64,000 nt of DNA from the IMG/VR virus record IMGVR_UViG_3300034284_001491, positions 20,462 through 84,461 of that record; one strand, 5' to 3'. This document shows, one piece after another, positions 35,063 through 62,264 of this stretch (positions are counted from its first letter, which is position 1; each line of letters opens with the position of its first letter). The notes beneath the pieces were generated by a model that had not been told where the DNA came from, made no database searches, and saw nothing but the letters and a program-made list of their open reading frames with translations. The stretch is from a virus. Made by a program: the position numbers and the translations under genes.

Positions 35063-37762
35063 ATGGCAACCTATTTACCGAATGTAACAGATATAATTCC
35101 AGAGTATAAACCGTTTACTCCAAACTTTCAATTCTATAATCAAGTATTGCAAATAAAAAATTCGCAATATCAACAAGGTTATAAAAAAATAAGTGGATTA
35201 TATAACACTCTTCTTAATTCTCCTATGACAAGAGATGAAAATATTGAAAGAAGAGATAAATATTTCAAAGATATTGAAGGAGAAATTAAAAAAATTTCTG
35301 GACTTGATTTATCTCTACCACAAAATGTAAGTGCTGCTGGTGAAATATTTAAACCATTTTATGAAGATCAAGATATTAAAACTGATATGTATGTCACTAA
35401 ATCAGCAAGAGATTCAATGACAGCACATGAAATTTTAAAAAATTGTGTTGGTAAAGATTGTGGTGAAGCAAAAGCTTGGGAAGACGGTATAAAAGCAGTG
35501 AATTATAAACTTCAAGAGTTTAAGAATGCTTCAACAGAAGAAGCAAGAAACTTTGGTAAAATTGGGTATACACCATACGTTAAGTATGCAGATGATGTAG
35601 TAAAATTCTTAAAAGATAATAAGATTGAAATTACCCAAGAAACAAGAAATGGAAGATATAATATCACCACTACTAACGGTCCATTGCTTGAAGGTCCTTT
35701 ATATAATATGATTAAAACATTATATGAGGATGATATTAATGTACAAGAAATGTATAAAACAAAAGCATATGTGCAAAGAAAAGATTTTGCAACAGGTAGA
35801 GCTCAAGAATTTGGTGGTATAGAACAAGCAGAACAAGCTTATATATCTGATAAATTACAAACATATTCTGGTTTATTAGATAATCAAATTGAAGATGTAA
35901 ATACTCAATTAGAAATTTATACTGCACAAAAAGATGCATTATCTAAAAAATCAAAACTCAATACTAAACAACAAGAAAATTTAGCTCAATTAGAAACAGC
36001 AATTCCTTTATTAGAAAAAAGTTTAAGTTCATTACAATCAGCAAAAAGTAATTACGATAATGTAGATCAAGTGGATATCAATACTCTAAGATCTAGAGTG
36101 GATAATGTTACAAGTGGTGTTTTGTTTGAAGGTGATATAAAAGGAATGGCAAAAGATTTTTCAAAGATTGGATTTAAACAAACATTTGAAGAAGATAAAT
36201 ATGCACTTGAAGCATATAGAAGTTCTTTAGATTTTAATAAAAGTGTAGCTTTAGCAAAAATTAAAGCTGGTATAGATTTACAAACTTTTAAAATTAAAGA
36301 AGATTATAAAGCACAAAAAGAATTTGAGAAAGAATTTAAATTAAGAGGAGGAGAGGATCCATTAAGTATTAATGCCACAGAAACTACTGCAGAAAATGTA
36401 GAAAAAGTGAATGCTTGGCAATATAATATGGAGACAGCTAGTAGTGTTAATAGGCAATACACTGATGGATTAAAATCTACATTAAATAATATTTACTTAG
36501 CATTAAAATCAGATGGTGGTGCAGAAGCTAATGCTTTATTAAAGCAAATATTTGCTAATAACAAGGGTGTAATTGGTGATGATAAAAACTATTTTGGATA
36601 TGATGAAAATAAAGGATATCCAATACATCAAACATATTGGCAACAAGCACAAAAATTTTTATCTAAATCTGAAAACTTTAAAGGATTAATTAATTCTAAT
36701 GCAGAACAATCACTTAAAATGTTAGAATTAAAAGTGGCTGCTGCTACAAAACTTGGATTTGAAAATAATTCTAAAGTTAGAAATGCATTATTAGCTGGTG
36801 ATGATCTTGGTGATGATGAGAAAGCAGATTTAAGAACAATGATGAAAACAGATGGTTCAGTGTTATCAAGAGAACAATTTATAAATGCAACAAAAGATAG
36901 ATATGATGCTGAAGATGCAGGTGAAGCATATGATGATTTATTAGAAGCATATAAAACTCAGTATGCTAATCCAGAAGCACCAGAAGGATTAAGAACTAAA
37001 ATGTTTATTGGTGGTCCATTTGAAGATAGAACAGGTGCTGTTGGTATTAAACCAGGTATTGTTTCTGCAGATCCATTAAGAAATTTATCAGATAATTTTT
37101 CATTAGTGAATTCTGTTTTATCAAATGGTATGAATTCTGGTGAATTTGCTGATGAAGAAACTAAATCTTTATTTAAAGAACTATATAGAGATTTTAACAC
37201 TTATCTAGATATTAAAAAAGAAAATCCAAATAGAGCTGCATTAACAATGCAATATGAAGCAGTTTCAGATAAAGAAGGTTATGCAAAAGTCACTTTAAAT
37301 CCAAGCAGAGAATGGTTGGAAAAAACATTAGTGGGAGGAGACAAGAAAGAAGAAGCTGCTAAATTCAAACAATATGAAAATGGAATATCTTTTTATATTC
37401 CAGATGAAAAAGTTCAAAACAGTTTTGATTCACAAATCAAAGGATTTGGTGATTTAATTCTTGAAGCAAATGGTGGATCAATAAGTATTGGGGATGATAA
37501 AGATCCAGAAAATGGCGGATCTATAAAAATTACAAAAAATGGTGATGCTTTAACTGTAAATAGTAAAAACATTAAAGTTAATCCAAATACTGGTGATGCA
37601 TATTTTACTCCTACAATTACAACCAGTGGTTTTGGACTTGATCCAGAAGATATTATTCAGGAAGCAATGAAAACAGTGTATGAAAGTAAAAGTACATATG
37701 CTAGAATTTTAGAACAATTCGATATAAAAAATAAAGAACTATTAGGTAAAGAAGGTAAATAA
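35063..37762 (+). CDS. Internal virion/ejection protein
   Basis: 899 aa, helical/coiled coil; directly upstream of the giant trio. Confidence 0.55.
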   Translation: MATYLPNVTDIIPEYKPFTPNFQFYNQVLQIKNSQYQQGYKKISGLYNTLLNSPMTRDENIERRDKYFKDIEGEIKKISGLDLSLPQNVSAAGEIFKPFYEDQDIKTDMYVTKSARDSMTAHEILKNCVGKDCGEAKAWEDGIKAVNYKLQEFKNASTEEARNFGKIGYTPYVKYADDVVKFLKDNKIEITQETRNGRYNITTTNGPLLEGPLYNMIKTLYEDDINVQEMYKTKAYVQRKDFATGRAQEFGGIEQAEQAYISDKLQTYSGLLDNQIEDVNTQLEIYTAQKDALSKKSKLNTKQQENLAQLETAIPLLEKSLSSLQSAKSNYDNVDQVDINTLRSRVDNVTSGVLFEGDIKGMAKDFSKIGFKQTFEEDKYALEAYRSSLDFNKSVALAKIKAGIDLQTFKIKEDYKAQKEFEKEFKLRGGEDPLSINATETTAENVEKVNAWQYNMETASSVNRQYTDGLKSTLNNIYLALKSDGGAEANALLKQIFANNKGVIGDDKNYFGYDENKGYPIHQTYWQQAQKFLSKSENFKGLINSNAEQSLKMLELKVAAATKLGFENNSKVRNALLAGDDLGDDEKADLRTMMKTDGSVLSREQFINATKDRYDAEDAGEAYDDLLEAYKTQYANPEAPEGLRTKMFIGGPFEDRTGAVGIKPGIVSADPLRNLSDNFSLVNSVLSNGMNSGEFADEETKSLFKELYRDFNTYLDIKKENPNRAALTMQYEAVSDKEGYAKVTLNPSREWLEKTLVGGDKKEEAAKFKQYENGISFYIPDEKVQNSFDSQIKGFGDLILEANGGSISIGDDKDPENGGSIKITKNGDALTVNSKNIKVNPNTGDAYFTPTITTSGFGLDPEDIIQEAMKTVYESKSTYARILEQFDIKNKELLGKEGK

Positions 37763-43700: not shown

Positions 43701-43863
43701 TCCAGAAGCAAATCAAAATGCTAAAGATAATATTAATAAAATGGATGACTTTACTTCTGAAACAGATAGATTAAAAAAGCTTCTTAAAGAAGATTTTAAT
43801 GAAGATGATCTATTTAGTGGTGCAGAAGATCCAAATAATTGTAATTTAATAAATCCAGAATAA
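37762..43863 (+). CDS. Giant ejection protein with hydrophobic N-terminal helices, PD-(D/E)xK nuclease and P-loop domain
   Basis: Gly/Ala hydrophobic segments; AGTTDLL..IIDLKT..QQNAY; YASPGLGKS..FADMD. Confidence 0.75.
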   Translation: MENILDSTQGSISPELFDFYDKSFMVNGDPNLENILPSSNPDNNTGDNVNNLITQLNNNNKVFQNRVTNIQDSFNDPFKEVKMYGFNPSFKGLNMDRYDDKELGFDPFRDNEKFYNENTSIFYDYGRAFNGMGRLAAGAFVDSATSLGRMIQGDFDVSPEFALDSERIMAETMSTKSGFLPGVANFMVNTGFTVGMLAEMVVEEGLIAGASLLLAPESGGASLGGGAYLAALRAQMGATRIASAWKGMGALKKALTNLDDVNEARRYFTQFGKGTVDFLNPLRNTTDLFADGNKLKGLGQMAAVSKGFGAFFRDVRDINRSLSEARLEGGFVQNKMFEDLVNEHIERTGKEPTESELQGIKNMAHTAGMTTQLINLPVIHYTNNIAFGNLSRPLTKFIGGANDLRFLKGKFGWVGDTFQELDKGFIQSTRRSLNPRNISRNSLNYFSANLAEGLQEVFQEATAVATEDYYKNLYFNENSIARKMNELSWLDSYGKGIGAQMSGQGLEVFASGFFMGGLMNTVSKNLFKTIDYVHESVNDRRLEARAKKDPEFKIEYEKQKADKQQRITQAKKDLVEGINALYQDPNKLFAPDLENLTAQEILDRKIRAAGANNDRKFLIDFTDESFFKHVETALRVGKFESLIDRIEGRLKLNDDELAQAMNVKDGAAARARLEVSIDRAKEIKRRFDLAPKNPIDLSKFNSSFFNKNKATEEEYYQARIYSKAFDDAVNDMIFSQVSFDRKLERMRNITGDFAKINILADAPAAPLMHLFGASNMMTEIELLMSEIQALDPTDEKNKKTIEEKTSLLNKLNTLAETIDDFTEYDRETRTNEEMAGDDIQNPKYAEAIRKAFGEYMEEYAKVNKTYIKADNLDNAFDLLYDYYRLDVDADRLSKSVAVVSSPSFINDEASRKFRALKNTYDNRKSYIQKSVDKFFELIGLNDVFSKLKDLDVAVHPQEALAFNLAQGNYKIKRFVNAKTLEEIKESDPLMEKIKNIMSDYEQTIGIKEKEEAKAKAEEEKKKEEEAKKEAEEEKKAAQKVETDVLAGLDSKTIKELRDAYNDIERDDKESFEEFLDSPQAQRIIAAAKRGKEPEEKSGKQPPPTSTEKVPFNGIETTEFNIPGVSMEGFTIDGNYYNVLSHYGRAKTLVNINGVIVPFYLTSGSGGKGLIPGWYPFGGIGEDGWLNKTGKADMESYYSRLIGQENADLLKAVAAKLNEQYGTDPEVFKNPDADPTTTEKPISSLSDKTEEYINSKLPFTPTSNRTAETLKNFESNMTKLGEALTNARTTTPTSTEAAPTTTDPKSDIERRKKESLNSIVESYDKGTDLTIGKAIITKSDGTKESISDLKDVVTTGDPFQRLKDKIEAIYKQELDALEGKGTKVETNLSANIDPPNEGVEEELTPEELDILTDLEPKSPFSELDPLYSADEFILTEDGKFYFNQNNPKQKAKRVSELKPEFKKTPSNKIQVEIAAERGNIIDFLIRRFFENRLTADNVDNAAAAYRKAYGKRKLNFDPNFFTDLYKNFETIKSEFDSKGWTIVSNLPTLFGVLGKDLYAGTTDLLAKDKDGNYFIIDLKTSSQSRRNDYEKQLLGESNYGYSTADRIQQNAYRELLKQRTGIEVKGLYILPIIIEGQVGKISGKFTSSRIDSSPTEGNLLQIDMSKTIYEIVPDKFTFPETNVPEFPVSNLIVGKIVYASPGLGKSRLVSQYPNQFADMDQLLADEFNAAGYTGFTADNVGSKVFELYKGQDFDSIDEIVNNIYRKAFDRAREMTKTGVTVLTGSSRFLSGRGSNRYVDVAIKADSDTLIKDQMKAKNPTMSESEIDSLVSRVRQTEDKAKILIEVDNAGFLNFIQGNINLSPLIAKANSNKEIMAIEKLIPITVSDEDLANFTAKNKLMQDRQKMFKELQPGDLVELSINDGKNTVTLSVERLVPYANGKNNKVMFMPNSNNIKELIPTNSFSIVSVTKAGIKPSEVEVSPEANQNAKDNINKMDDFTSETDRLKKLLKEDFNEDDLFSGAEDPNNCNLINPE

Positions 43864-46800
43864 ATGGCTTGTTTAACACAAACACAAACTGATAATATAT
43901 TTAGACATGTAGGTTCTTATTTTAAATCATTAAAAGATCCTAAAGATTATAATCATCTTGACCATTTTAAATACCTATACAACTTAGGTGTTAATAAAGG
44001 TGTTAAACCAGAAACTAGTTTAAATTATGTACAAGTACTTCCAAATCTTGTAAATAAATATTTAACTATTACAAATACTAGAATTAGTAAAGAGGAAGCA
44101 ATTAAACTTACAAATCTTGCTTACGATTTTGAAGAGTTTAGTTTAGAACAGATTGCTGAATATATAGGGCAAATTAAACAACCAGATGTTGTTAGTACAG
44201 AAGAAGAACCTGTAATAAAAGAAGAAGAGATTGAAGCTAATGAATCTCTACCATTATATACAGCTTTAACATCTTTAGTGCTAAGTACAACACTAAATGA
44301 AAAACTAGATATAAATGAATTAGAAAAAGATCTAGATAAAGTATGGCATCACGAATTCAATAGAGAATTATTATCTAGAACTGTATCAGCTACAGAAGGT
44401 GCTTTTAATACCACATTGAATGGTCATAGAGGATTTAGATTAAAAGCAGTGAAGATGTCTTCTATTCCTTTTGATGAATTATATAATTCTATTAAAGGAG
44501 ATAGAAGTGAAGAAGAGGTGAAAGCTATTCTAGATAAGAATAATGCAATAGCTCTGGTAGTTACAGATAATGATGGTAATCTATTAAGATTTGATCAAAC
44601 TTACACTAAAAATCCTAATGGGAAATTAGTGTATTTTAATATGCGAGACACTAAATATGATTTACTTGATTCAACAGATGCTAGAGGTAGAATTCAATCT
44701 ATAGCTGATATAGCAAAAAATTATAATATAAGTGCTAAAGATGCTGAAGAGCAAATTAAAAAAGAAGTTGAGAAATTAAGAAATATTCAAAAAGCAGTGT
44801 TTGAAGATAAACCTGTTTTATTTGAAATTACTGGAGGAACAAAAGGATATATTCCCTCTATTGTAAGACCAACAGGTACCAAAGATTGGTATGGTATTGC
44901 TCCATCTACATATGGAGATATTGTTGATTCTTTTGGCATCACTCCTATTGAATTAGTTACAGAAGGTGAGTTTAAGGGAAAACTAATGGTTTACCTAAAT
45001 GAAGGTAAATTACCGGTGTTGCTATTAAATAGAAATATTACAGATGCAGAAGCATTAGAATATGCATCAGCTGTACATAAGTTTTTGAATGAAAATAATC
45101 ATTCTTCTGGAGCTGTAAATACAGCAGCTACATTCTTATCACAATATATTGCTTTTAATCAACCTGAAAAAGTAAGTCTTGAACAATTTCTATTTAATAA
45201 ACTAAATACTCCAGAAAGTATTGCTCAAATGATTGTTAAAAAACCTGATTCAAATTTCAATAGGTTTTTGACATACCAAGCAAATCAAAGTATTTATTAT
45301 ACAATTGCTGATGGTAGTATTAAACAAGCAACACTAAATGAATATCAAGATCAGTGGAGAGATAAACTAAGAACATTATTAGTGAAATCTCAGAATGGTA
45401 AGATTGAACAGTTTAGTTCTAGTTTATCTTTTGAACCTACTAGTGAGTCTAGAAATATAGTAAATGGTGTAGAGGAAGTTAAAGAAGAGAAGAAAAATAC
45501 AGCTATTATATTTGGTGGTGTTAGTCGTAATCTGGAAGACTTTCTTAAAGAAAGAAACATTACATCTGCTGCCACTAAAAAACAAATAGAAGAAGCATTT
45601 GAATGGTATAAATCAAGTCCTTTAAGTAAAGTAATACCGTTTACAACAATGTTTGATGTTGTTAATTCAACTGCTAAAGCATCTTTTGGTAAACAAGGTA
45701 TTAAATTATTTTTTGGAGCTAACTATACAGATTTATATCACGAATCTTGGCATGGATTCTCTCAGTTATTCTTAAGTAAAAGTGATAAAGTAAATCTATA
45801 TGAAGAACTTAGAAAGCTATCTGGATCATTTGTTTTACCAAATGGTGTTAGAGTAAATTATAAGGATGCTTCTTATAGACAACTTGAAGAAGTGTTGGCT
45901 GAAGATTTTAGATTATATAAGTTATCTGGAGGTAAAAAAGTATTAGGTCAAAGACCTATAAGAAATAAATTTTTTAGAGCAATTTTTGACTTCCTTAATT
46001 GGTTATTTGATGGTGTATCATTTAACCAAGCAAGAACTGATTTTAATTCAATTAAGAAAGTACACGATCTATTTAAGAAATTAGATATTGGTGATATTAA
46101 GGAATATAAAGCATCAGATAAAAATTCTTTATTTACATCATTAGCAAGTCCTATTGGTATATCAACAGATACACCATTAAATGAAACTGAATCAACAGAA
46201 GTGTCTGAATCTATGGATTCAATTATCTCTGATTTAATGTTCCAGTTTGCAGAACAAAATGGTGTAAGTATTTTTGGAGATTTTCTAGGATCAAAAAAAT
46301 CTATAAAGAATGTCTATGGTTTAATTAAAGAAACTTTAGAAAAGAAAGTTGATGAATTAAATGAAGATGTTGAAGCAAATGATAGAGCAATCTTTATTTT
46401 AAACACTGCTCTAAATAATTTTGGAAATATAGATGAGATTATTGATAAAGGTAATTTAGAAGGAGATACAACTATACAATATCATCTTAGAAGATCTAAA
46501 GTTCTAGATTTTAAGAATAAAGAATTTGATGATGAAAATAAAGAAGAGTCAAGTGATTTTGTTACAAAGAAAGATCAAGCTGACCAAGGAGAACTTTCAT
46601 TTGAAGAACTAGCTAATGAAAAAGTGTTATTCTTAATTAGAACATTAAAAGCTTATAAATTAGAAAATGGTAAATATGTTCCTGAAAAGAATAATCTAGG
46701 ATTTTCTAAACTCACCAATTATAGAAAGACATTAGGCAATGTTATAAATATTGTCTCTAATAATACCGGAGCAATTTCAATTTATAATAAACTTAATGAA

Positions 46801-52800: not shown

Positions 52801-54714
52801 TTTAGTAACAAGATTATTATGCTGGCAAGAAATGGTAAATTTGCGGGGACTTCTTTAAATGATGAAACAAAAAGGTCTATTAAAAGAGCATTTGACCGAG
52901 GAGTTGAATTTGTAGTAGGAGATATGCCAGGAGTAGATAGTCAGTTTATAGATTATCTACAAGAGATAGGTGCTAAATTTACTATTTATCATACAGGTGA
53001 TACATCAAGAATTCAAGTTAAACAACCTACTACTCAACCTGCTAAACAAAAAAAAGGTAAAGGGGAACCTAAGTTTATTGCTACTGGTGTATTTATAAAA
53101 GATGATAAAATATATTTAGATATAAACACTCTAAATAATATCTACAATCAGCTTGATAATAATTTAGATACTGTTAGAGATGTAAATGGAGTGGGAATTA
53201 AGTACCCTCCTAAGAAAGCATTTAGATCATTTACAGAATTTGTAAACTATTCTTTAGAAAAAGAATATCTACGTAATATACTTAGTAATGAAGATGTTAA
53301 AACAATAGCTCTTAGACTAAACAGCCTTAAAGTAGATGTTAGTTCTAAACTAAATAACTCACCAATTAAAGTGGTGAATGAATTTAATTTATCAGATAAT
53401 AAGAAACTTTTTGAGATATATAGAATGGGTGGTATTGTTGTGGATAGTTCTTTTGGTTTAAAAGATCTTGTAGATGCAACAAGTGGAGAAATTGTATTGA
53501 AAAATTTTACAATACAAAAAAATATGAAAGTAACTCAATATGAGATTGATGAATCTAAATTAATATCTGATGCCATTGAAACATATCTAATGGATAAAGC
53601 TCTAAAGACTATTAATAACGTATATTCTTACACTCAACATATTGGACTTGATTATCCCACTCAATTATCAGAATTGATAAGAACAGTTCCTAGTCTAAGA
53701 TCTCAGTACTTACTTCCAAATTTATTTACTACTCGTAAGATTAAAAATTCTAGATCAAAACAATTAGTGTTGAATCAAGCAGATCTTGATCCGGGAATGA
53801 TTTCAATTTTACATGAACAGTATTTACAACTTTCAGATCCTGGTGTGATGAAAGTAGAAGATCCTGCCCTTAATCAATATATAAGTGATGTATTTAAACA
53901 ACTAAGTACTTATGCATTACTTACTGAGGGATTCTCTAAACAAGGAGCATTTAGTTTATCTGAAGTTGTTGGACAAAAAGATCTATTAGAGATTGGTACA
54001 TTTAATAATATTAATGAATATGTAAATGGATCATTGTCTAAAACATTAGATTCTAATGGTAAAGCTAAGTATGAAAATTTCTTAAATAGTTTTGCATACA
54101 AATTCTTCAGAAATAGATTAGGATTATCACTTAATGAAAGAAATGAATGGAGTTTTAATAGATCTTATCTAAACACTAATAAAGATTATTTGATAGAAGA
54201 TTATCAAGTTAAACCATTAGTACCTGAGAATATTGAGAATTTTAAGTATTTATCAAAATTCAGTGATAATTATTATATTGTTAATGTAAATAGTGTCATA
54301 AATGATTCTAAAACATCATCAGATAAAAAGTTTAAATCCAGTACTTTAACTGAATATGCAAATATGTTTTCTGATGTAACATTTATATATGATACTGACA
54401 CAATGAAAAATCTAGGATTAAAAGCTTTAACTGCAGATAATATTAAAGTTGTTAATTCTCCAGAAGCACTAATGAAACTTAATATTTCCGGACCAATTGC
54501 ATTACCATCAAATGGATTGAATCCAGCTTTTAATGAAGCAATTGCAAATAAGTTTGGAATATTAAATCTAGGACAAAGAGATATTAGTAAGAACGCAACT
54601 CTTACAGATATTATAAACTCTGATTCTTTGTTAGTAACTTCAGATATAGTAAATTTAATCCGTGCTAAAGCAATAAGTGTTTTAGATGAACTAAAAAATT
54701 CTTGTAATCTATAA
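43864..54714 (+). CDS. Giant virion-packaged RNA polymerase (crAss/phi14:2 gp66-like double-psi-barrel) with zincin and accessory domains
   Basis: GDAQGW, PKKFQFYG, KFSLLPL, RIPVQGHNS and catalytic AGSDYDIDK (DYDID at 50035-50049); HESWH zincin at 45739-45753. Confidence 0.9.
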   Translation: MACLTQTQTDNIFRHVGSYFKSLKDPKDYNHLDHFKYLYNLGVNKGVKPETSLNYVQVLPNLVNKYLTITNTRISKEEAIKLTNLAYDFEEFSLEQIAEYIGQIKQPDVVSTEEEPVIKEEEIEANESLPLYTALTSLVLSTTLNEKLDINELEKDLDKVWHHEFNRELLSRTVSATEGAFNTTLNGHRGFRLKAVKMSSIPFDELYNSIKGDRSEEEVKAILDKNNAIALVVTDNDGNLLRFDQTYTKNPNGKLVYFNMRDTKYDLLDSTDARGRIQSIADIAKNYNISAKDAEEQIKKEVEKLRNIQKAVFEDKPVLFEITGGTKGYIPSIVRPTGTKDWYGIAPSTYGDIVDSFGITPIELVTEGEFKGKLMVYLNEGKLPVLLLNRNITDAEALEYASAVHKFLNENNHSSGAVNTAATFLSQYIAFNQPEKVSLEQFLFNKLNTPESIAQMIVKKPDSNFNRFLTYQANQSIYYTIADGSIKQATLNEYQDQWRDKLRTLLVKSQNGKIEQFSSSLSFEPTSESRNIVNGVEEVKEEKKNTAIIFGGVSRNLEDFLKERNITSAATKKQIEEAFEWYKSSPLSKVIPFTTMFDVVNSTAKASFGKQGIKLFFGANYTDLYHESWHGFSQLFLSKSDKVNLYEELRKLSGSFVLPNGVRVNYKDASYRQLEEVLAEDFRLYKLSGGKKVLGQRPIRNKFFRAIFDFLNWLFDGVSFNQARTDFNSIKKVHDLFKKLDIGDIKEYKASDKNSLFTSLASPIGISTDTPLNETESTEVSESMDSIISDLMFQFAEQNGVSIFGDFLGSKKSIKNVYGLIKETLEKKVDELNEDVEANDRAIFILNTALNNFGNIDEIIDKGNLEGDTTIQYHLRRSKVLDFKNKEFDDENKEESSDFVTKKDQADQGELSFEELANEKVLFLIRTLKAYKLENGKYVPEKNNLGFSKLTNYRKTLGNVINIVSNNTGAISIYNKLNEAKNKPEIQELLMKLGKIEPNTDIDSKSTFNSWVLFANSFNTTKLPMLITIIETAEDSKPKIYNVDASSDITSERSRMISRYKTNIYNTKYATMNSDKNEMMLDIKKLSEIFEPVFGVTAKKTEANKQEAAFYLFAAIGLPLNDKLYEQYFDKDKNLNRDIVKNATYVYRELKNFYDRNTSGKLKNNMIPDHIDLLTNGLGADSDFLTQKTVIDNLLYLHIKVADVVSSFSLLNAEGNREYENVLNSQITITQNNINESRTLEELYNKPGFEHFNPANNPMIKASQVFKRLFANGVRQTDFNIRKFSGIQSIEDGYFTNGQSTIETDPVSKFYLEFYSYLTTGFTSNPTPSDKKTYLGFFVTGADGDNRFIKPNAFTDGTALGDKALEDIMFDYLKAEHERVYDLNSNVYPELARLGFFSDYGKEFLVFDNILLPETKERLKALSPKKLLEDANQELVSRAKNEIIEYINKLTDQNYEVFQKIDFIDDEVLKKATKQKGKFNSAAYSKNIVKAFSANTFIQYIESTIMFYGDIAAYDLIKEDFHKRDSASGSTGRTMITDPQFIRAYNKFYGSRYAESQGFNHSFNEDGYINTSIFQDHKYENKALMDEYEKSWRKAYTEEFKKLGFNAKQIKEKVDFLIEKQLAPYKQNEVKEGDAQGWVTLDSYRFFSILLNEWSPAHEDIYNKIVNNESVDQAEVLKVFSPKKFQFYGPLKTSKYHVNVLHKFSLLPLIPNVIQGKNIDILHKRMLRENVQYATFISGSKIATLRNENNELDKFYSDPSTRMMDNSPLTKNVIHLRYLRNQVPINDYYKNRVVFSTQLRALIYNDLFNKGIPLNKNIETLVNKYIQSIEDYVEASKDELKQEINFNSTDGTYDVKKLAKIIKKELDRRDIPDHLQIAATSANEDGFTYDMSLARNANDIEKILFSIANKRIVKRKINGEPLIQVAGSGFESQRATNPTKEQVEEYKGDDLLFYRKDPITGENLPMQVKVALQGKFKNLLGLTHPDGNKINTRERLNQALENKEWRDKHKEMLQLMAVRIPVQGHNSMEYMEVAEFLPEVAGPIVILPSYIVAKAGSDYDIDKLSVFFPNIEKAGKRIFLSKFDSSIKESNEQIKNNIDSVKNEIKLLKDQIQKEFENLKKEKEFNKLDTKEKEIINALYSNYNRIKNEYDVLITRWTSESILAGKGKTFSNDILNLENDIDNKYQELNVAEAQLKLNLKQYYSAFSTEKKQQFWKSKEPQVEALYEQLSDLKVKLINKSASSLENGLIRNLINIISTDEVFEMMKKPNGTYLVQDFANDMTKYFETDYNPKQSFKDWNRSTVSSISPKFKVSPTNIFEIQYNIYKQNANSVGKRALGIGANVNKIKALFNQIDFQFNKEYIHTRYSKKKKKYEEQLREIRILLNHNSNKDGSISLSSLYNTEGIKISDYLNQLMNGWLDVAKDPWIFYVMGTPELTPALLYLVSAGTPFEEAVYFLAQPVVRKYIEDVKKLDSPISKLDETFKDPYEFTIQARMLGLGREANGHTLWERQMSLINLELQRTENQLFTKDYLQSKLDDSLTGSLEYSREDQAILAHFFEINDGAKAIARVQQSFNFDTKTSSTLFETFKRGQKRDILIEDVEFEVNYSKMFPKEKLKSLYEDTILGKFDITDVQTNVFGGLFPIRNNPQLNEYLYNIYSNNIFFGSQFDDKIKKFLGDPEKFVSEFKNDFTTAMLLKMLYDFKIEDNQYKGLEIQTITRDVDIRDLGLLEEPESEFNPNKLFFATKNYTKDTPSQYPKFGFIFTENLEMLGTDKNVSTTQAIIRTDKEGNINRNALAIVTKKEQAANKFFEDTDEDFDLFKTTNAKLIDTIANSNFERIIVPTGGFAMEKAKLPTRFAEWLQNELQNKLGIETDLVDRGSGYSGLSNPKKFDKPTTQPSTESIGFQGYKGGFEDKGKGTPEGDGKDKAMRQVADGAIVEFKTDKVDSSSFTTLNYFDGTYSYEKDRYIGEAFIGDSFKGFSNKIIMLARNGKFAGTSLNDETKRSIKRAFDRGVEFVVGDMPGVDSQFIDYLQEIGAKFTIYHTGDTSRIQVKQPTTQPAKQKKGKGEPKFIATGVFIKDDKIYLDINTLNNIYNQLDNNLDTVRDVNGVGIKYPPKKAFRSFTEFVNYSLEKEYLRNILSNEDVKTIALRLNSLKVDVSSKLNNSPIKVVNEFNLSDNKKLFEIYRMGGIVVDSSFGLKDLVDATSGEIVLKNFTIQKNMKVTQYEIDESKLISDAIETYLMDKALKTINNVYSYTQHIGLDYPTQLSELIRTVPSLRSQYLLPNLFTTRKIKNSRSKQLVLNQADLDPGMISILHEQYLQLSDPGVMKVEDPALNQYISDVFKQLSTYALLTEGFSKQGAFSLSEVVGQKDLLEIGTFNNINEYVNGSLSKTLDSNGKAKYENFLNSFAYKFFRNRLGLSLNERNEWSFNRSYLNTNKDYLIEDYQVKPLVPENIENFKYLSKFSDNYYIVNVNSVINDSKTSSDKKFKSSTLTEYANMFSDVTFIYDTDTMKNLGLKALTADNIKVVNSPEALMKLNISGPIALPSNGLNPAFNEAIANKFGILNLGQRDISKNATLTDIINSDSLLVTSDIVNLIRAKAISVLDELKNSCNL

Positions 54715-54716
54715 TT

Positions 54717-57700
54717 ATGGCTTGTAAAATTCAAAAAGATTTAGATGGTAATATTACTTCAGTACTTGCTCCTAATGGAAATGAGTCACAACTATTTAAT
54801 GCTATAGCTTCATCAAAAAGTATTGATGATGCTTTATTAGATTATGCATCCACATATACTAGTGAATTTACTAATGCTGTTGATAAACATTTTGGTAAAC
54901 TAGATAGTAATGAGATATATGATGTAAATAATGAAGTGAAGTTTGAGATTTATAATAAGATTATGAATCCTGAACTTACCCTACTAAAAGATTCTGGATT
55001 TGGTAATGTACCTAATCCTTTATTAGAAGATTTTATTTTACAAGTAATAGGATATAGAAAAGTATTTCAAGGAACTAATGAAGAAGTAGATAATAGAAAA
55101 TTTAATTATTTTGCTTTAGACCGTCAAGAAGCTCTTATGTATGGTCCAAATGTAAGAGAAACTATTATTAATACAGATGGTTTTTTAAGAGTTAAAGATT
55201 CTCGTAGTCAATTTAGAGATTTAGTGTATAAATTCTATGATGAAACAGGAAAATATTTTGACATTCTTAGGAATGATGAAGAGGGATTAAAAACACAAAA
55301 TGAATTTTTTCAATTCTTAAAAGATAAAGGATATAAAGGACTTGATTATACCGGATATATTGATAATCAATATTTAATAACTTTTACAAATCAAGATCTA
55401 GAAGCTAATACTACAAATAGTGGCGAACTATACACAAACTACCATGATAGAGTATATAGATTTAGAGATGCAAAACCTGCCACTCAAAAAAGTGAAAGAA
55501 ATAAAGAGTTTGATAGTAAACTAAGAACCGGTCTTCTTGAATTTATTAAAGGTTTAAATATAAATATCAATGAAGAAGCTGATGATTTATTAGATACAAT
55601 TAATTCTAATCCGGTTGCTGCATTTGATACACTACAAAAATATCTAGCATTAAGATCTGATATCACTGATAAAGATTTAGCAGTACAAAGTGCTAATATC
55701 ATTTATACAATGATAGGTAAGAAATCAAAGTTAAGTATTGAGTTGTGGCATAATATCCGCAAATGGTCTAAATATGATGAGTTCTACAAATATTATCTAA
55801 AGAAATTAGATCAGAATTATAATACAAATGATAAATATGATTCAGAATATATTCTAGAAACTGGAGAAGAGTATAAAGGAAAAACAAAAAACAACTGGGT
55901 ACATAGACAAGTTATAATTCAGTTTATTGCAGAAGCAATTAAGATTGGTGCAGATAGTAAATATTTTGGAGAAAAAAGAGAAAATGTTGATATAGATAAA
56001 GATTACTTTAAAAAACTTGGATTTCGTAATAAGTATGAAGAAAATGTAATTTTAAAATTAATAAACGAAATTTTAAACTTTATAAGAGAAAAATTTAAAG
56101 GAATAAAAGTAATTGATAAAGATTTATCTCAAGAACAATTATTAAATCTAGCATTAGATATTGTTGATGATGTTTATAAAAAAGATTATAGTAAGTTTAT
56201 AAGATCCTATATAAAAGATGAATCTGGCCAAGTTAGAAGTTTAAAAAATCAAGAACTATTTGAAATAAAGAATTTTGAAAAGACATTAAACTCAGATCCT
56301 TTTGCTAAAGAAATTATTACAAGATTATTTGATAATCCATTTATTGATTATAAAGCTAGTGGTTCTTTAACATTAAGAAAATTTGGTACTTTATTTAGAG
56401 CAGTATCTGAAAATCTACATGATATAGATGGGGTTATCACATATGATCAATTTAAAAAAGAATCAAATGCTCTTGCTTTTAAAACCTGGTTACAAACAGA
56501 AGGACTAGCATTACAAGCTAATTATAAAAAAACTAAGTTCACAAAAACTGCTTCTAAATATTTAGAACAACAAAGTTGGTATATTAATTTAAAAAATCTA
56601 TATCCTTCATGGACACTAGAATCAGTGTTTATAGGAAGAGATCATAAAAGAGCTGAATCAGTGACTATTACAGGATATGTAGAACATCCTACAGACACTG
56701 AAATTGTTGAAGAAACTGGTGAAACTAGACCTAAAAGATATGTCATAGATTTCTTTTTAAGAACTACTGAGGATGAGAGATTTCCAGAACAGTTTGAAGA
56801 TAACTATTGGAAAGCTTGGAAAGGTATTTTTGAAGCTAAATTAAATATGGGTAGAGCAAAAGATATCAATGACTTGATATACTTTGAACCATTTAAACAA
56901 GATAAATTCAAATTTACAAATAAAGGTTTTAGATATTTTTCATTTGCTGATGATCGTGTTGTAAATCAAATAGAATTTAATAGACAAATAGAAGCAGAAA
57001 CATTAGCTGAACAATCTATTGAAGATAAAATAGATACACTATCATTTAATACTATTAGAAAAATAGCAGATAGATTATCTGAATCATTAGGTAATATTCC
57101 ATACTATATTGTAGATAGATCAGAAGCTAAAAAAATTCTTGAAGAAGCTGGTGAGACATATGATAATGAAGGAGCATTCTTCTTTAATGGTGAAGTATAT
57201 ATAGTTAATGATGCATTTACACTTAATAACGTAGTCCATGAATTTAGTCACCCTTTTGTTAAGGCTCTTCAGAAGAACAACCCTGCTCTATTTGATAAAC
57301 TATATAATGAGCTCATCCAAACAGAAGAAGGAAAACAAATTGAAGAAACCGTTAAAGAACTCTACAAAAAGAAAAGAGAAGGTAGTGCAGGATTCAAAGA
57401 AGAAGTCTTTGTAAGAGCTCTCACTAAACGAGCTTCAGATAAATTAATTAAACAAGAATCATCTTCTTTATTTAAGAAAATAATTGATAAGATTCTATTT
57501 AACTTAAAACAAATGCTTAGAAAAGTATTTGGGAAAGTTAAAATTGAGAAATTAAATGTAGATACAACATTAGAGGAGTTAGCTGAAATGTTAACTACAG
57601 ATACATTCAATATTTCAATTAAAGATGTAAGAAATTTAGAAGCAGAATTTAGTAGAGAAACAGCCAGAGAATCTGCAAAATATTTAAAGGATAATAGAAG

Positions 57701-60700
57701 AATTGAATTAAATGAAAGTATTAATGACTTTTTTAAATTAATTAGAAAAAATCAAGCACAAATTGATCAAGGTATAAGAAGTGATAGTTCTTTCTATCAA
57801 GTATTTACAAATACTGAAACAGAAAGACCATTTCAGGATATAATTCGTAATTTGAAACCTTATCAGACAATTGAACCAACAAGTACAAGTGTTACTTCTG
57901 CAATAGATTATAGACAAATGCAAGTACAAGCTTTTGTGGATAATATGTTTAATTATGAGGAAGGATTAGATCAAATTGCTGATGAAATTAATTTAATTAT
58001 ATCTGAAGGTAGAGATAGTCAATTTGCATTAAATAGATATTCTTATTTAAAAGATATTCTAGAAGCAAGTTTAAAATCTTTTGAAGATATCACTGAAGGA
58101 TTTAATAATCAAAATGTACCAGTTAATAGTCCTATATATCAATTAGTTAATGAATTAACTTCAAAAGCCACTAATTCAATTAAGGCAATAAAAAAGCAAT
58201 ATCAAATATTACTACCAGAAATTATTGCTCCACAACTTGAAGGATTAAATAAAACAATAATTGATAGTTATAATGAAACTATTTCAAGATTAGAAAAAGC
58301 TGGAAAGGATCCAGAGAAAATTGCTAGACTTAAAAAAGAAAGAGATTCTTACGTAAGAGACAAAAATTATATTGCAAAAGTATTAGCTGGCGAAGAACCA
58401 GAACCTGCAACATTAGGACTTAGTGCTTTTGTAGAAAGTGCTATATCAAGTCCTGATGGTTTGATATCATCATTTGCTAGAATGTATAAAGAAGCAATGA
58501 TAGATGTTGAATTAACAGCTATTAATAACTACAACGACTTCTTAAAAGAATTAGATCCATTAATTGATGCTGCTGGTATTTCATTTAAAAATATTTCTAG
58601 TCTAGGATCCCTAATAACTAGAGTACAACAAAAAGGTTATATTGATCCCACTACAAATGAATTTACAACAAGAGATATTGTAGAGTTACTATCACCATTT
58701 AAAGATTATCATCAGGTGCTATCTAAGTTTTCATATGATATGAATAAAGCACAACAAGATGGTGAAGAAGAACAATATGTTGAATTAAAAAGACAGAAAG
58801 AAGAATTCATTAGAAACTACATGCATAGTGATTATCTTCCTGTTGTATATACCACTGATGATGTTTTTAATAAAACATTTACAGATAGTAACGGTGTAGT
58901 ACATGAAGTAGGTAAAATTGCTAGACAACGTAGAGATGTTATTCTTGAAAAGATTAGAGCTGCAGATAGTATTGTTATAGATGAGCTAGAAAAACTGGAG
59001 ATTAGTAGTAGATTGAAAAAAGATACTTTATGGTCTGAATATTATGCATTATATAATAAATATATGCCTGATGGTCAACCAAAGGATGAAGTGGAAATGG
59101 CTATTACAGAAGTGTTGCTTGAAAATAGAAAAGCTAGAAAAGAATTCTTTGAATGGGAAAGTGATCTTGAATCTGATAGTATGCCTATTAAAAGATTTGA
59201 AAAAGCAAGAAATGCATTTAAATCTCATATTGCCACTAGATTTGAAATTGATTCTCCTGAATATAAAGAGGCATTAAAGAACTGGGATATTCTCAATACT
59301 AGAAAAGTAATTGATAAATCTTTCTATACACAAAAACAAAGAATCATTCAAGAGATTCGTGAAATCTATGATAAGATTAATAATACTTCCACTTTAAGTG
59401 CTTCTGAAAAAGAAAAGATTGCTAAACAAAATGAGATATTAGAAAATAAATTATTAATGATTGTTGATCAACTCTATGGATATAGAGATGAAGAAAATCA
59501 TCCTAATGGTTTATTAATATCTGCAGAAAAAGCTGCAAAAATTAAAGAAGCTCAAGAAGAAATAAATAAAATACAGGAGTCTTTAAAAGCTGGATCTGGT
59601 TTAACTAGATCAGAAAAATATAGATTAAATATATTAGCTGAAAGATTAGCAAGTGGGGAAGATCTAACTCAAGATGAGCAAGATGAATTAGAATCATTAG
59701 ATTCTAGAAATCTTAATTCAACAGTTCCAAAAGCTATTAGACAACAGTTATCTAGAAAGTTTGAAGAATTAAATGAATTACAGAGTAAATATCCCACTAA
59801 ATATTATTTGATTGCTATTAACTATAGAATTGAACAGTTAAATCAAAAACTTAAAGATGCTGGAAAACCTGAATCTCAATTAGTTAAAACATTAGATATA
59901 TTTAATGTTGATGAACTAACAAGAGATGTTTCTTACATGGAACATGTAATGAAGAAAGATCCGGCATTTAAAAAATGGTTTTTAGCAAATCATATAAAAG
60001 GATTAGAATGGGATACTGAGTCATCAAATTATATTGAAGTATATAAAAGAATACCTATCTGGACAGAAATCACCCCAAATGAACCAGAGTTTTTTAGACA
60101 AATGACTTTATCAGATGGTGAAGTTGTTTTTGGTATGCCCACTCTTAATTATTACAAACAAAACATCAAACCAGAATATGCAACTCCAGAGTTTGATGAA
60201 AATGGTGTAAGGACAAAAGATGTTAAAGGTAGATGGTTACCAAGAGTAATACCTAATTCACCATATATTAATCAAGAATACTTTGATCTTAAAGCAAACA
60301 ACAGACCTGTATTTGATCTACTTGAAAAAATTACAGAGTACTACTTTAAGTTTCAAGAAAAAGCTGAACCAGTAGATAGACTAGGATATGAAATTCCTAG
60401 ATATGAAAGAACAAGAAAAGAGTTGGTAGAAAGTAATGCTTTCATTTCTGGAAAAGTGAGTGGTATAAAAGCAAATCTCACTAATATTCTAAATAAACTT
60501 AAAGAAAACCCTGAAGATTTTGACTCAGGATTATCTACAGAAGATAAATTTAGACTTATCACTCTTGATCAATTTGAAGATGATAAAGGAAAAATACATA
60601 TTAGTGGTAAAGTAATGCTTGAAGAAGACCAGGTTTCTAGAGATGTAATTACATCTATAGTAAGACATATGTTTTCTATTGAGTCAGCAGCTAAAAAAAG

Positions 60701-62264
60701 AGAGTTACATCCTACATTTAATGCTTTAGTTGAGGTATTAGAAGATCCTAAGAATCAACCAAAAGATAAAACAAAAGCAAGTTTGTATGATTCTGTTTTT
60801 AAGAAGATTACAGTATTTGCAAATAAAAAGGGAATGAATACAAGAGCTAAAGCTACTAGAGCTTTTGTGGAAAGAAATTTCTATAATGTTCAACAAACTG
60901 GTTTTGGTTCTGATGTTACCTTTTTACAAAAAGCAAGTAGATTAATGATGGCTGGTGCATCATTTGGATTCTTTGCATTAGATATTGTTTCTGCAGTAAA
61001 GAATAGATTTGGTCAACAGATACAGCAAGCTATTGAATTAGCAGCAGGTAATAGTTATGATGCTCAAAGTTTCTTAAAAGGAAAAATTATTGCTTCAAAA
61101 GCAATGATGGAAGTAACTGCTTCAATTTATTCAAGAGGTAAGTTACCATATCATGTTCAACTTATAAATGCATTTGATCCGGCACAAGGTAGATTAGCAG
61201 AAAAACTACCTGAGATGATTACTAGAACAATCTATAAAGATGCTGTTGATCCTTTAAATGCTACAATGTCTCCAAGAAAATTCTTAGAGATGGAAGCTAC
61301 TTTAGAGTATTTCTATGGTGTAATGGAAAATACAAAAGTGGAACAGACAGTAAATGGTGTCACCACTTCAATACCATATCATGAAGCATTTGAATTAGTG
61401 GATGGAGTATTGAAATTAAGACAAGGAATTGATGAAAAATATGATCTTGGTGGTAGTGAGTTTAAAAGATTAAGATTATTCATACAAGAAAAACAAAATA
61501 TTCTAAATGGTGTGTTCTCAATTGCAGATCAACCAGAAGGTAACAGATATATATTCTATAGAATGTTTATGTTCTTAAGAAAGTTCTTTGTTACACAATT
61601 CCTAAATAGATTTGGTTATGGGGGATCAATATTCAATCCTAGATATAGAACTAATATAGCCACTGAATCATTAGAGATGGGTTATTGGTTACAATTTGCC
61701 AGAGGATTGAAAAACCTAATAACTACAATGGGTGACCATTATCATTATATGCTTCCTCAAGAGAGAGCAGCAATGAGAAAAGCTTTAGGTGAAATGGCAA
61801 TATTAACAATTTTATCTATTCTAATTCCTTGGATGCTTGGATGGGATGATGATGATGATGAAAAATATGCTAAACTTAGAGAAAGACAAGGTGGTCCACT
61901 TGGAAGTGAGAATTTCCAATTTGGTGGTTGGTTAGCTAATCATGCATTATATCAAACATTATCTGTAGCTCAAGAAAATACACAGTTCTACGATCTTAGT
62001 TTTTATTCAAGTATGGCAAGTAATTTCAATCTTGCTAATGGACCAACACTTAAAGCTTATGGTAAAATTTTAGATGATGTTTATGGAATGGTGACAGGAG
62101 AAGATAACGCATATTATAAGAAAGATGTGGGTCCATATCCTTGGCAAAAAGCTGAAAGTGCTAAAATATTTAACCACTTAGGTAAAATGTTTGCATTAAC
62201 AGGTAAGAATATAGATCCTGCACAAGCCACTAAAGATTTTATATCAGCACAAAATATATATTAA
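54717..62264 (+). CDS. Giant polyvalent ejection protein (ART-like, nucleotidyltransferase-like, zincin, long helical body, hydrophobic C-terminus)
   Basis: APNGNESQL N-terminal motif; FQG..YFA..A..YG..GYKG; SGS..DID; HEFSH..EE; C-terminal hydrophobic helix. Confidence 0.75.
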   Translation: MACKIQKDLDGNITSVLAPNGNESQLFNAIASSKSIDDALLDYASTYTSEFTNAVDKHFGKLDSNEIYDVNNEVKFEIYNKIMNPELTLLKDSGFGNVPNPLLEDFILQVIGYRKVFQGTNEEVDNRKFNYFALDRQEALMYGPNVRETIINTDGFLRVKDSRSQFRDLVYKFYDETGKYFDILRNDEEGLKTQNEFFQFLKDKGYKGLDYTGYIDNQYLITFTNQDLEANTTNSGELYTNYHDRVYRFRDAKPATQKSERNKEFDSKLRTGLLEFIKGLNININEEADDLLDTINSNPVAAFDTLQKYLALRSDITDKDLAVQSANIIYTMIGKKSKLSIELWHNIRKWSKYDEFYKYYLKKLDQNYNTNDKYDSEYILETGEEYKGKTKNNWVHRQVIIQFIAEAIKIGADSKYFGEKRENVDIDKDYFKKLGFRNKYEENVILKLINEILNFIREKFKGIKVIDKDLSQEQLLNLALDIVDDVYKKDYSKFIRSYIKDESGQVRSLKNQELFEIKNFEKTLNSDPFAKEIITRLFDNPFIDYKASGSLTLRKFGTLFRAVSENLHDIDGVITYDQFKKESNALAFKTWLQTEGLALQANYKKTKFTKTASKYLEQQSWYINLKNLYPSWTLESVFIGRDHKRAESVTITGYVEHPTDTEIVEETGETRPKRYVIDFFLRTTEDERFPEQFEDNYWKAWKGIFEAKLNMGRAKDINDLIYFEPFKQDKFKFTNKGFRYFSFADDRVVNQIEFNRQIEAETLAEQSIEDKIDTLSFNTIRKIADRLSESLGNIPYYIVDRSEAKKILEEAGETYDNEGAFFFNGEVYIVNDAFTLNNVVHEFSHPFVKALQKNNPALFDKLYNELIQTEEGKQIEETVKELYKKKREGSAGFKEEVFVRALTKRASDKLIKQESSSLFKKIIDKILFNLKQMLRKVFGKVKIEKLNVDTTLEELAEMLTTDTFNISIKDVRNLEAEFSRETARESAKYLKDNRRIELNESINDFFKLIRKNQAQIDQGIRSDSSFYQVFTNTETERPFQDIIRNLKPYQTIEPTSTSVTSAIDYRQMQVQAFVDNMFNYEEGLDQIADEINLIISEGRDSQFALNRYSYLKDILEASLKSFEDITEGFNNQNVPVNSPIYQLVNELTSKATNSIKAIKKQYQILLPEIIAPQLEGLNKTIIDSYNETISRLEKAGKDPEKIARLKKERDSYVRDKNYIAKVLAGEEPEPATLGLSAFVESAISSPDGLISSFARMYKEAMIDVELTAINNYNDFLKELDPLIDAAGISFKNISSLGSLITRVQQKGYIDPTTNEFTTRDIVELLSPFKDYHQVLSKFSYDMNKAQQDGEEEQYVELKRQKEEFIRNYMHSDYLPVVYTTDDVFNKTFTDSNGVVHEVGKIARQRRDVILEKIRAADSIVIDELEKLEISSRLKKDTLWSEYYALYNKYMPDGQPKDEVEMAITEVLLENRKARKEFFEWESDLESDSMPIKRFEKARNAFKSHIATRFEIDSPEYKEALKNWDILNTRKVIDKSFYTQKQRIIQEIREIYDKINNTSTLSASEKEKIAKQNEILENKLLMIVDQLYGYRDEENHPNGLLISAEKAAKIKEAQEEINKIQESLKAGSGLTRSEKYRLNILAERLASGEDLTQDEQDELESLDSRNLNSTVPKAIRQQLSRKFEELNELQSKYPTKYYLIAINYRIEQLNQKLKDAGKPESQLVKTLDIFNVDELTRDVSYMEHVMKKDPAFKKWFLANHIKGLEWDTESSNYIEVYKRIPIWTEITPNEPEFFRQMTLSDGEVVFGMPTLNYYKQNIKPEYATPEFDENGVRTKDVKGRWLPRVIPNSPYINQEYFDLKANNRPVFDLLEKITEYYFKFQEKAEPVDRLGYEIPRYERTRKELVESNAFISGKVSGIKANLTNILNKLKENPEDFDSGLSTEDKFRLITLDQFEDDKGKIHISGKVMLEEDQVSRDVITSIVRHMFSIESAAKKRELHPTFNALVEVLEDPKNQPKDKTKASLYDSVFKKITVFANKKGMNTRAKATRAFVERNFYNVQQTGFGSDVTFLQKASRLMMAGASFGFFALDIVSAVKNRFGQQIQQAIELAAGNSYDAQSFLKGKIIASKAMMEVTASIYSRGKLPYHVQLINAFDPAQGRLAEKLPEMITRTIYKDAVDPLNATMSPRKFLEMEATLEYFYGVMENTKVEQTVNGVTTSIPYHEAFELVDGVLKLRQGIDEKYDLGGSEFKRLRLFIQEKQNILNGVFSIADQPEGNRYIFYRMFMFLRKFFVTQFLNRFGYGGSIFNPRYRTNIATESLEMGYWLQFARGLKNLITTMGDHYHYMLPQERAAMRKALGEMAILTILSILIPWMLGWDDDDDEKYAKLRERQGGPLGSENFQFGGWLANHALYQTLSVAQENTQFYDLSFYSSMASNFNLANGPTLKAYGKILDDVYGMVTGEDNAYYKKDVGPYPWQKAESAKIFNHLGKMFALTGKNIDPAQATKDFISAQNIY

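Follow-up and report, generated by a model that had tools for sequence, protein, structure and literature searches.

Facing terminal cysteines in the three giant RNA polymerase-associated cargo proteins of a divergent crAss-like phage suggest a possible head-to-tail disulfide chain

The window analysed here is a stretch of 64,000 nucleotides from the IMG/VR virus record IMGVR_UViG_3300034284_001491 (84,461 bases, linear, approximately 70% complete), and its open reading frames (ORFs) were translated with table 11. Three giant genes lie consecutively on the same strand and encode proteins A, B and C, of which B is a homolog of virion RNA polymerases (RNAPs) (Table 1). Together the three proteins comprise 8164 residues and contain only four cysteines (Cys), located at position -7 of A (negative numbers being counted from the C-terminus), positions 3 and -3 of B, and position 3 of C. 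Both junctions of the trio are thereby flanked by a pair of facing Cys, and Cys is absent from both of its free ends, the start of A and the end of C. The remaining 19 ORFs of the window with at least 150 amino acids (aa) contain 126 Cys among 11,806 residues (1.07%), with values of 2.5-4.5% in several structural ORFs. At the background of 1.07%, 87 Cys would be expected in the trio (Poisson P for four or fewer, 4e-32), and the chance of four Cys falling one into each of four junction-facing zones of seven residues is 1.3e-11.

An initial annotation of this DNA, made from the sequence alone, had reported that the three giant proteins have only four Cys, with codons at 43840, 43870, 54703 and 54723, that none is found at the start of A or the end of C, and that Cys is not avoided genome-wide. 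The translation of all 8164 residues agrees with each of these statements, all four positions being identical on re-reading and the Cys content of the other ORFs being as given above. Thus the four-Cys observation is confirmed as real and strongly non-random. The same annotation had noted that both junctions repeat a CNL/MAC pair, which holds for this phage and its near relatives, but farther relatives keep the Cys alone.

Table 1. Genes, cysteine codons and catalytic motif of the A-B-C trio (positions in the window).
Feature	Position	Strand	Description
Protein A	37762-43863	+	2033 aa, first chain member; weak match to crAss001 gp47, nuclease-like domain
Protein B	43864-54714	+	3616 aa, middle chain member; virion RNA polymerase homolog
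Protein C	54717-62264	+	2515 aa, last chain member; weak match to crAss001 gp49
Cys codon TGT of A	43840-43842	+	Residue 2027, 7th from C-terminus (...PNNCNLINPE)
Cys codon TGT of B	43870-43872	+	Residue 3 (MAC...)
Cys codon TGT of B	54703-54705	+	Residue 3614, 3rd from C-terminus (...KNSCNL)
Cys codon TGT of C	54723-54725	+	Residue 3 (MAC...)
DFDID of B	50035-50049	+	Residues 2058-2062; DFDxD-type catalytic motif of crAss-like virion RNAPs

The identity of the trio was examined by comparison with named phages. By BLASTP, B matches g066 of phage phi14:2 (E 1.7e-23), gp50 of crAss001 (E 4e-10) and the RNAP fusion protein of p-crAssphage (E 9e-9), and weaker matches link A to crAss001 gp47 (E 8e-8) and C to crAss001 gp49 (E 9e-5). 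A DFDxD motif has been named for the RNAPs that crAss-like phages carry in their virions (bioRxiv 10.1101/2020.03.07.982082); in an alignment of B with 36 homologs (22-70% identity), D2058, D2060 and D2062 are invariant within the consensus GxDFDIDK. Since the trio has the DFDxD motif in its middle protein and similarity to the named orthologs throughout, as expected of a Crassvirales RNAP-associated cargo trio, the source can be identified as a divergent crAss-like phage and A-B-C as its RNAP-associated cargo block. Residues 1471-1635 of A match the exonuclease family phrog_298 (E 3e-9), the one PHROGs match in A, and C has none; the window ORF at 1679-3295 matches the phage major head protein family phrog_11589 (E 3e-31). 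Pfam searches with A, B and C gave sub-threshold matches only, phmmer against PDB sequences gave nothing useful for any of the three, tblastn with the first 1000 aa of B found no match in 50,697 phage records, and no relative of the last 699 aa of A was found among viral contigs. Mass spectrometry has detected the crAss001 orthologs gp47, gp49 and gp50 in virions, where they are assigned to the cargo zone of the capsid at an estimated copy number of perhaps six each (PMC10172136), and the phi14:2 trio likewise consists of virion proteins by mass spectrometry (bioRxiv 10.1101/2020.03.07.982082). By homology, A, B and C of the window phage would also be present in the virion and injected.

B also contains an HExxH motif (residues 626-630, positions 45739-45753; consensus YHEAWH), in which H626, E627 and H630 are each at least 90% conserved among the 37 sequences of the alignment. 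The N-terminal part of the RNAP protein may thus contain a zincin-like metalloprotease module; such a module is annotated in the C-type protein of p-crAssphage and phi14:2, and the HExxH motif would place one in B too. On the minus strand, a 153-aa ORF with a TTG start (54273-54734) runs antisense over the B/C junction and is most likely spurious in this AT-rich sequence.

Conservation of the terminal Cys was examined in homologs from a collection of 5.8 billion proteins (120 of B, 41 of C, and the best 120 of 159 of A), with Cys scored as terminal within 20 residues of either end. A C-terminal Cys only is present in 118 of the 120 listed A homologs, and an N-terminal Cys in none; the two that have no Cys at all are encoded on contigs of 4.2 and 4.5 kb, whose ends probably truncate them. 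Among the C homologs, 39 have an N-terminal Cys only, one has Cys at both ends, and one, which is short, has none. The B homologs are divided into 81 with Cys at both ends, 34 with a C-terminal Cys only, 3 with an N-terminal Cys only and 2 with none. C3 and C3614 are two of the 37 invariant columns in the alignment of B with its 36 homologs, and C2027 is one of the 24 invariant columns when A is aligned with 40 homologs (20-86% identity). At identities to the window proteins as low as 20-25%, the residues that flank the Cys vary freely while the Cys stays. A simple rule of polarity therefore describes hundreds of divergent relatives: the first protein has a C-terminal Cys only, the middle protein has Cys at both ends, and the last has an N-terminal Cys only.

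A census of gene junctions was carried out in IMG/VR, where a profile scan found 452 confirmed relatives, the best 80 loci of which were used. Junctions were taken between successive ORFs on the + strand that had at least 600 aa, each starting at the first ATG of its open frame, with a junction Cys counted within 10 residues of the facing end; the census left out shorter ORFs, ORFs on the minus strand, ends truncated by the contig and repeat copies of a junction, and the counts ignore shared ancestry. Both facing Cys are present at 124 of the 155 unique junctions and neither at 30, the latter belonging to smaller cargo proteins upstream of A; one junction has the downstream Cys only and none has the upstream Cys only. 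Facing Cys are thus co-present or co-absent at 154 of 155 junctions, which bears out the suggestion of the initial annotation that Cys would be paired at internal junctions, and at the sole discordant junction (locus L068) the only Cys of the upstream protein is found at -19. At the 125 paired junctions, the N-terminal Cys always lies at residue 3-6; the C-terminal Cys is found between -1 and -10 at 124 junctions and at -19 at one, for a median combined overhang of 4 residues; overhang lengths of the two partners are not correlated across junctions (Spearman -0.10, p 0.25). The gap between the genes is at most 20 nt at 102 of these 125 junctions and more than 200 nt at 12 (502-2134 nt), and both Cys codons are used (TGT 214, TGC 36). 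Five loci (L018, L077, L080, L066 and L043) have 1.3-2.1 kb between chain genes and keep both facing Cys. The 179 complete chain proteins (455,179 aa) contain 241 terminal and 18 interior Cys, with no interior Cys in 165 of them.

The Cys pairs also co-vary with the division of the cargo into genes. In four-gene blocks (L040, L049, L056) the additional junction bears its own Cys pair, and chains of two and four members occur with two and six terminal Cys, respectively. Conversely, genes in which A and B are fused (L055, L062, L083, L072, L089) encode proteins with no N-terminal Cys: three of these fusions (L055, L062 and L083; 4065-4665 aa) have a single Cys each, near the C-terminus, and the other two (L072 and L089) have three Cys each, one of which is at -5 and -2, respectively. 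In the 34 B homologs whose only terminal Cys is C-terminal, the RNAP core is preceded by a median of 2540 aa, compared to 1680 aa in those with both Cys, and 29 of the 34 fit N-terminal fusions. The two Cys-free B homologs (P0076 and P0091) are recognizable as B-C fusions because their alignment runs colinearly through B and on into C-family proteins; their first 1200 aa gave no match to the A profile, and locus scans with P0076 alone and with P0076 and P0091 aligned returned one distant locus only (L089), which conforms to the rule. In p-crAssphage ZA and crAss002, the RNAP is fused to a C-type protein, the fusion has no C-terminal Cys, and the protein upstream of it ends with Cys at -2. The sequence MSC is found at the first Met of the ZA fusion and at internal Met 33 of the crAss002 fusion (gp33). 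In both phages the annotated start lies upstream of this Met-Ser-Cys (L086, 15672-15780, for crAss002 gp33; L003, 15834-15905, for the ZA RNAP fusion), and that of the ZA fusion is not ATG; the true starts are probably Met 33 of gp33 and the first ATG of the ZA fusion. In some phages all three proteins are fused as one polyprotein (bioRxiv 10.1101/2020.03.07.982082). From these natural fusions it follows that the covalent order A-B-C is tolerated. Gene splits are thus accompanied by an added Cys pair, and fused genes are without one.

Among cultured phages, the rule is followed by phi14:2, crAss001 and DAC15, and also by crAss002 if its fusion starts at the internal Met. In phi14:2, single Cys are found in g067 (at -1) and g065 (at 3), and two in g066 (at 3 and -2); in crAss001, gp47 (at -3) and gp49 (at 5) likewise have one Cys each, and gp50 has a single interior Cys in addition to those at 5 and -9; in DAC15, the sole Cys of gp078 is at -3, gp076 combines Cys at 5 and -1 with three interior ones, and gp077 has Cys 4 and one more in its interior. 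The window trio has three protein families, the DFDxD motif and the Cys rule in common with phi14:2 g067-g066-g065 and crAss001 gp47-gp50-gp49, but it is much larger than the phi14:2 trio (8164 aa versus 5398 aa), with 21-27% identity in the matched parts. The A-type genes of crAss001 and DAC15 are located on the strand opposite to B and C and still keep the rule, which is therefore independent of gene abutment. In cr10_1 of the Suoliviridae, the last Cys of the fusion protein gp32 is at -11 and the next ORF begins MKIIC; gp36 of cr273_1 begins MFC. By these comparisons the rule is kept in Steigviridae, Intestiviridae, Suoliviridae and a large number of uncultured lineages.

A precedent for such a Cys pair exists in an unrelated phage. 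In the cyanopodophage A4 (Anabaena phage A-4L), cryo-electron microscopy has shown the helix at the C-terminus of gp27 inserted into gp26, and Cys1715 of the former joined to Cys5 of the latter by a disulfide (PNAS 2025, PMC12002296). In the record of Anabaena phage A-4L, Cys1715 is the sole Cys of gp27 (1717 aa) and Cys5 the sole Cys of gp26 (1114 aa). Like the crassvirus trio, A4 (Saffermanviridae) has consecutive ejection genes in which the sole Cys of the upstream protein is C-terminal and that of the downstream protein is N-terminal; A4 has one link and no RNA polymerase, whereas the crassvirus chain has two or three links around the RNAP. The A4 disulfide has been observed in the virion, inside the capsid, and A4 is the sole such case; the cargo proteins are resolved in no crassvirus structure (PMC10172136). 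According to the A4 authors, the gp27 helix in the gp26 cleft is "further stabilized" by the disulfide within a pentameric ring; they describe the bond as a stabilizer of the ring, not a family-wide rule or a threaded chain (PMC12002296).

A second comparison is with the Schitoviridae, in which the giant virion RNAP and co-ejected proteins (N4 gp50-52, DEV gp71-73) are likewise nearly free of Cys. In the study of DEV, virion RNAP homologs are reported to contain 0.00075% Cys, compared to 0.865% proteome-wide, and the oxidizing periplasm, through which the ejection proteins pass, is cited as a suggested source of selection against Cys (Nat Commun 2024, PMC11445570). N4 gp50 (3500 aa), gp51 and gp52 have no Cys. 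The polymerase and flanking domains of N4 form one polypeptide without terminal Cys, whereas in the window the cargo is split, with a Cys pair for each cut; the trio is not a Cys-free ejection operon of the Schitoviridae type, as it keeps four terminal Cys. The crAss001 virion does contain disulfides, described between its tail hub and ring proteins (PMC10172136). The word cysteine does not occur in the main text of the crAss001 study (Nature 2023, PMC10172136), nor do cysteine, Cys or disulfide in that of the phi14:2 preprint (bioRxiv 10.1101/2020.03.07.982082), and full-text literature searches, which like these two counts covered main texts, found no description of the Cys pattern in crassviruses. 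The initial annotation knew of no description of such a chain, which is upheld for crassviruses but has to be qualified by the A4 disulfide (PMC12002296) and the suppression of Cys in Schitoviridae (PMC11445570). A single disulfide in A4 and Cys-free proteins in N4-like phages were thus already known; a rule-bound chain of multiple links around the crassvirus polymerase was not found in the literature searched.

It is very probable that facing Cys act as pairs that join consecutive proteins. The proposal of the initial annotation that terminal Cys link A, the RNAP and C is partly supported, by the logic of pairing across relatives, by the splits and fusions, by the occurrence of disulfides in crAss001 virions, by the A4 disulfide of the same geometry and, weakly, by the co-folding described below, and on this sequence evidence and analogy the facing pairs are, with moderate confidence, head-to-tail disulfides that join A, B and C into a chain. 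The three proteins would be packed in the capsid as cargo and then injected. In the oxidized extracellular virion, the C-terminal Cys of one protein and the N-terminal Cys of the next would form a disulfide, making one nearly linear covalent thread (A-S-S-B-S-S-C) out of separately translated proteins. Because the Cys sit so close to the protein ends (with the median overhang of 4 residues), the joined chain would be thin and could pass unfolded through the portal and tail; the purge of interior Cys would avoid cross-links that block unfolding, and one Cys per end would leave no possibility of branching. Reduction by thiols in the cytoplasm of the next host would free the three proteins. The full picture of a polymerase injected as a redox-cleavable protein train, with terminal disulfides, threading in gene order and cytoplasmic release, in which splits are repaired by a new pair and fusions discard theirs, is offered more tentatively, as a possibility that falls somewhat short of being probable. 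We infer the bond in crassvirus virions, the threading as one unit with its order of ejection, and the release by reduction from the sequence rule together with the A4 analogy.

Several observations weigh against disulfide chaining. The cytoplasm in which virions are assembled is reducing, so that the disulfide could form only after packaging or lysis, with the ends pre-positioned, and gut crassviruses inhabit anoxic habitats. The two junctions look alike, with MAC and CNL at both, and nothing obvious bars B from cyclizing, B from concatenating with B, or A from linking to C. Co-folding of the terminal peptides, proposed with the initial annotation, was run without alignments on the end of A (residues 1904-2033) and the start of B (residues 1-160), and gave a score of 0.50 (0.49-0.51 in three runs, "weak support") compared to 0.01 for the best of three controls, with agreement among runs in at least 25% of contacts and a partner pLDDT of at least 61. 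Of 78 solved complexes 51 reached the mark for support, as did 2 of 108 mismatched pairs; at scores of up to 0.60, however, it was reached by only 5 of the 78 solved complexes and by all 4 passing mismatches, which leaves the predicted contact between these ends in the weak band. The A4 precedent is an analogy only, because its proteins have no detectable homology to A, B and C: profiles of the three (HMM E up to 1) and BLASTP (1e-3) found no match in A-4L gp26-gp29.

Exceptions to the rule weigh in the same direction. Twelve B homologs (P0064, P0078, P0080-P0088, P0092) have 18-35 Cys, the terminal ones being kept. Three B-like proteins (P0033, P0040, P0054) lack the N-terminal Cys without an N-terminal extension or evident fusion, and three B homologs (P0042, P0057, P0120) lack the C-terminal Cys, P0057 being partial according to its source. 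Interior Cys are tolerated in cr10_1 gp32 (7 Cys) and in the p-crAssphage fusion (8 Cys). For gp35 of cr273_1, whose gene contains 36 in-frame table 11 stops, the nearest Cys lies at -50. The Cys-rich subgroup of B proteins is approximately 3700-4570 aa long, with many of the interior Cys at conserved positions, and the interior purge is relaxed in it. At the cr273_1 locus (L088, 4741-30275), gp34, gp35 and gp36 hold 5, 36 and 12 in-frame table 11 stops, respectively, which are a sign of stop-codon reassignment in late genes; because of these stops, the gene ends and terminal Cys of this phage can be judged only with the right code. A search for the thioredoxin family, the thiol-oxidoreductase family that was looked for, in the whole 84,461-base record (approximately 70% complete) found none.

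Among other explanations, the disulfides may exist but act as static staples that hold subunits in place in the capsid, within a packed body resembling a pre-ejectosome, with no threaded chain or order of ejection. The A4 bond, described by its authors as a stabilizer within a pentameric ring (PMC12002296), would be an example, and both the packing of approximately six estimated copies of each RNAP-associated protein in crAss001 (PMC10172136) and the weak co-fold hint (0.50) of a non-covalent contact between the end of A and the start of B are compatible with such a body. A staple could sit anywhere on a protein surface, however, whereas the Cys here are confined to residues 3-6 and -1 to -10 (124 of 125 junctions), and pairs that are gained precisely where a gene is newly broken and lost when genes fuse fit better with continuity of a chain, so that static staples are considered unlikely. 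It is more unlikely still that the facing Cys are joined without a disulfide, by a bridging metal ion or as a clasp between copies of the chain. This was raised in the initial annotation as an alternative, and a redox-independent link would suit the reducing cytoplasm of assembly, just as a total of exactly four Cys in the trio is the number of ligands of a tetrahedral site. The number four is not constant, however, because chains with two and six terminal Cys exist among those of two and four members; moreover, no conserved His or second Cys is found near the ends, and the A4 pair of the same signature was modelled as a disulfide (PMC12002296).

The similarity of the motifs at the two junctions, from which the choice of partner is not evident, leaves room for each terminal Cys to act independently, by carrying a modification or by anchoring to the portal, the capsid or some other protein of the virion, or for B to close on itself and A to pair with C. 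We regard this as improbable to a high degree: a general anchor would leave unexplained the lack of an N-terminal Cys in the first protein (0 of the 120 listed of 159), the lack of a C-terminal Cys in 39 of 41 last proteins and the concordance of facing Cys at 154 of 155 junctions, and cyclization of B would hinder its threading. Finally, the pattern might be a by-product of a DNA-level signal at the junctions (translational coupling, a promoter or a ribosome-binding site), of shared ancestry or of chance. Both window junctions do read TGTAAT(T/C)TA ... ATGGCTTGT, and most gaps are short (at most 20 nt in 102 of 125). Such an origin has a negligible likelihood, given that the A gene of crAss001 and DAC15 is on the other strand, away from the start of B, that 12 of 125 pairs are separated by more than 200 nt, that both TGT (214) and TGC (36) are used, and that flanking residues and codons vary while the Cys is invariant down to 20-25% identity; the estimates for chance are 1e-11 or lower.

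Two further candidates were rejected. Trans-splicing by a split intein is contradicted by the lack of any intein family among the Pfam matches of A, B and C (E up to 0.1), and Cys at 1-10 residues from the ends leave no room for intein halves. The Cys of a lipoprotein lipobox is preceded by a signal peptide of about 15-25 residues, and with the N-terminal Cys at residue 3-6 at 125 of 125 junctions no signal peptide is possible.

How a podophage passes megadaltons of protein through a narrow tail in a given order and stoichiometry is an open question. If disulfide chaining of the cargo is correct, a conserved covalent head-to-tail link would answer it in simple physical terms for crassviruses, which make up the most abundant phage order in the human gut, and would explain why their cargo proteins split and fuse freely, and the protein train would be a modular counterpart of the single 3500-residue polymerase of N4. 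For annotation, the terminal-Cys rule can be used to locate true start codons, for example in the crAss002 and p-crAssphage fusion genes, and to recognize the members of the chain and their order in metagenomic contigs.

Other large proteins of the window are also poor in Cys. No Cys is present in the window ORF at 33327-35003 (558 aa), nor in crAss001 gp46. BLAST of this ORF and of the 899-aa ORF that follows it against crAss001 gp46 and gp45 found no match, so that the correspondence is positional only. Three Cys-poor large proteins upstream of A, encoded at 22068-28091, 28130-33316 and 35063-37762, have their few Cys in close pairs near the N-terminus, at residues 168/173, 172/177 and 128/133, respectively, and paired Cys are also found in crAss001 gp45 (390/398) and DAC15 gp080 (211/219 and 273/281).

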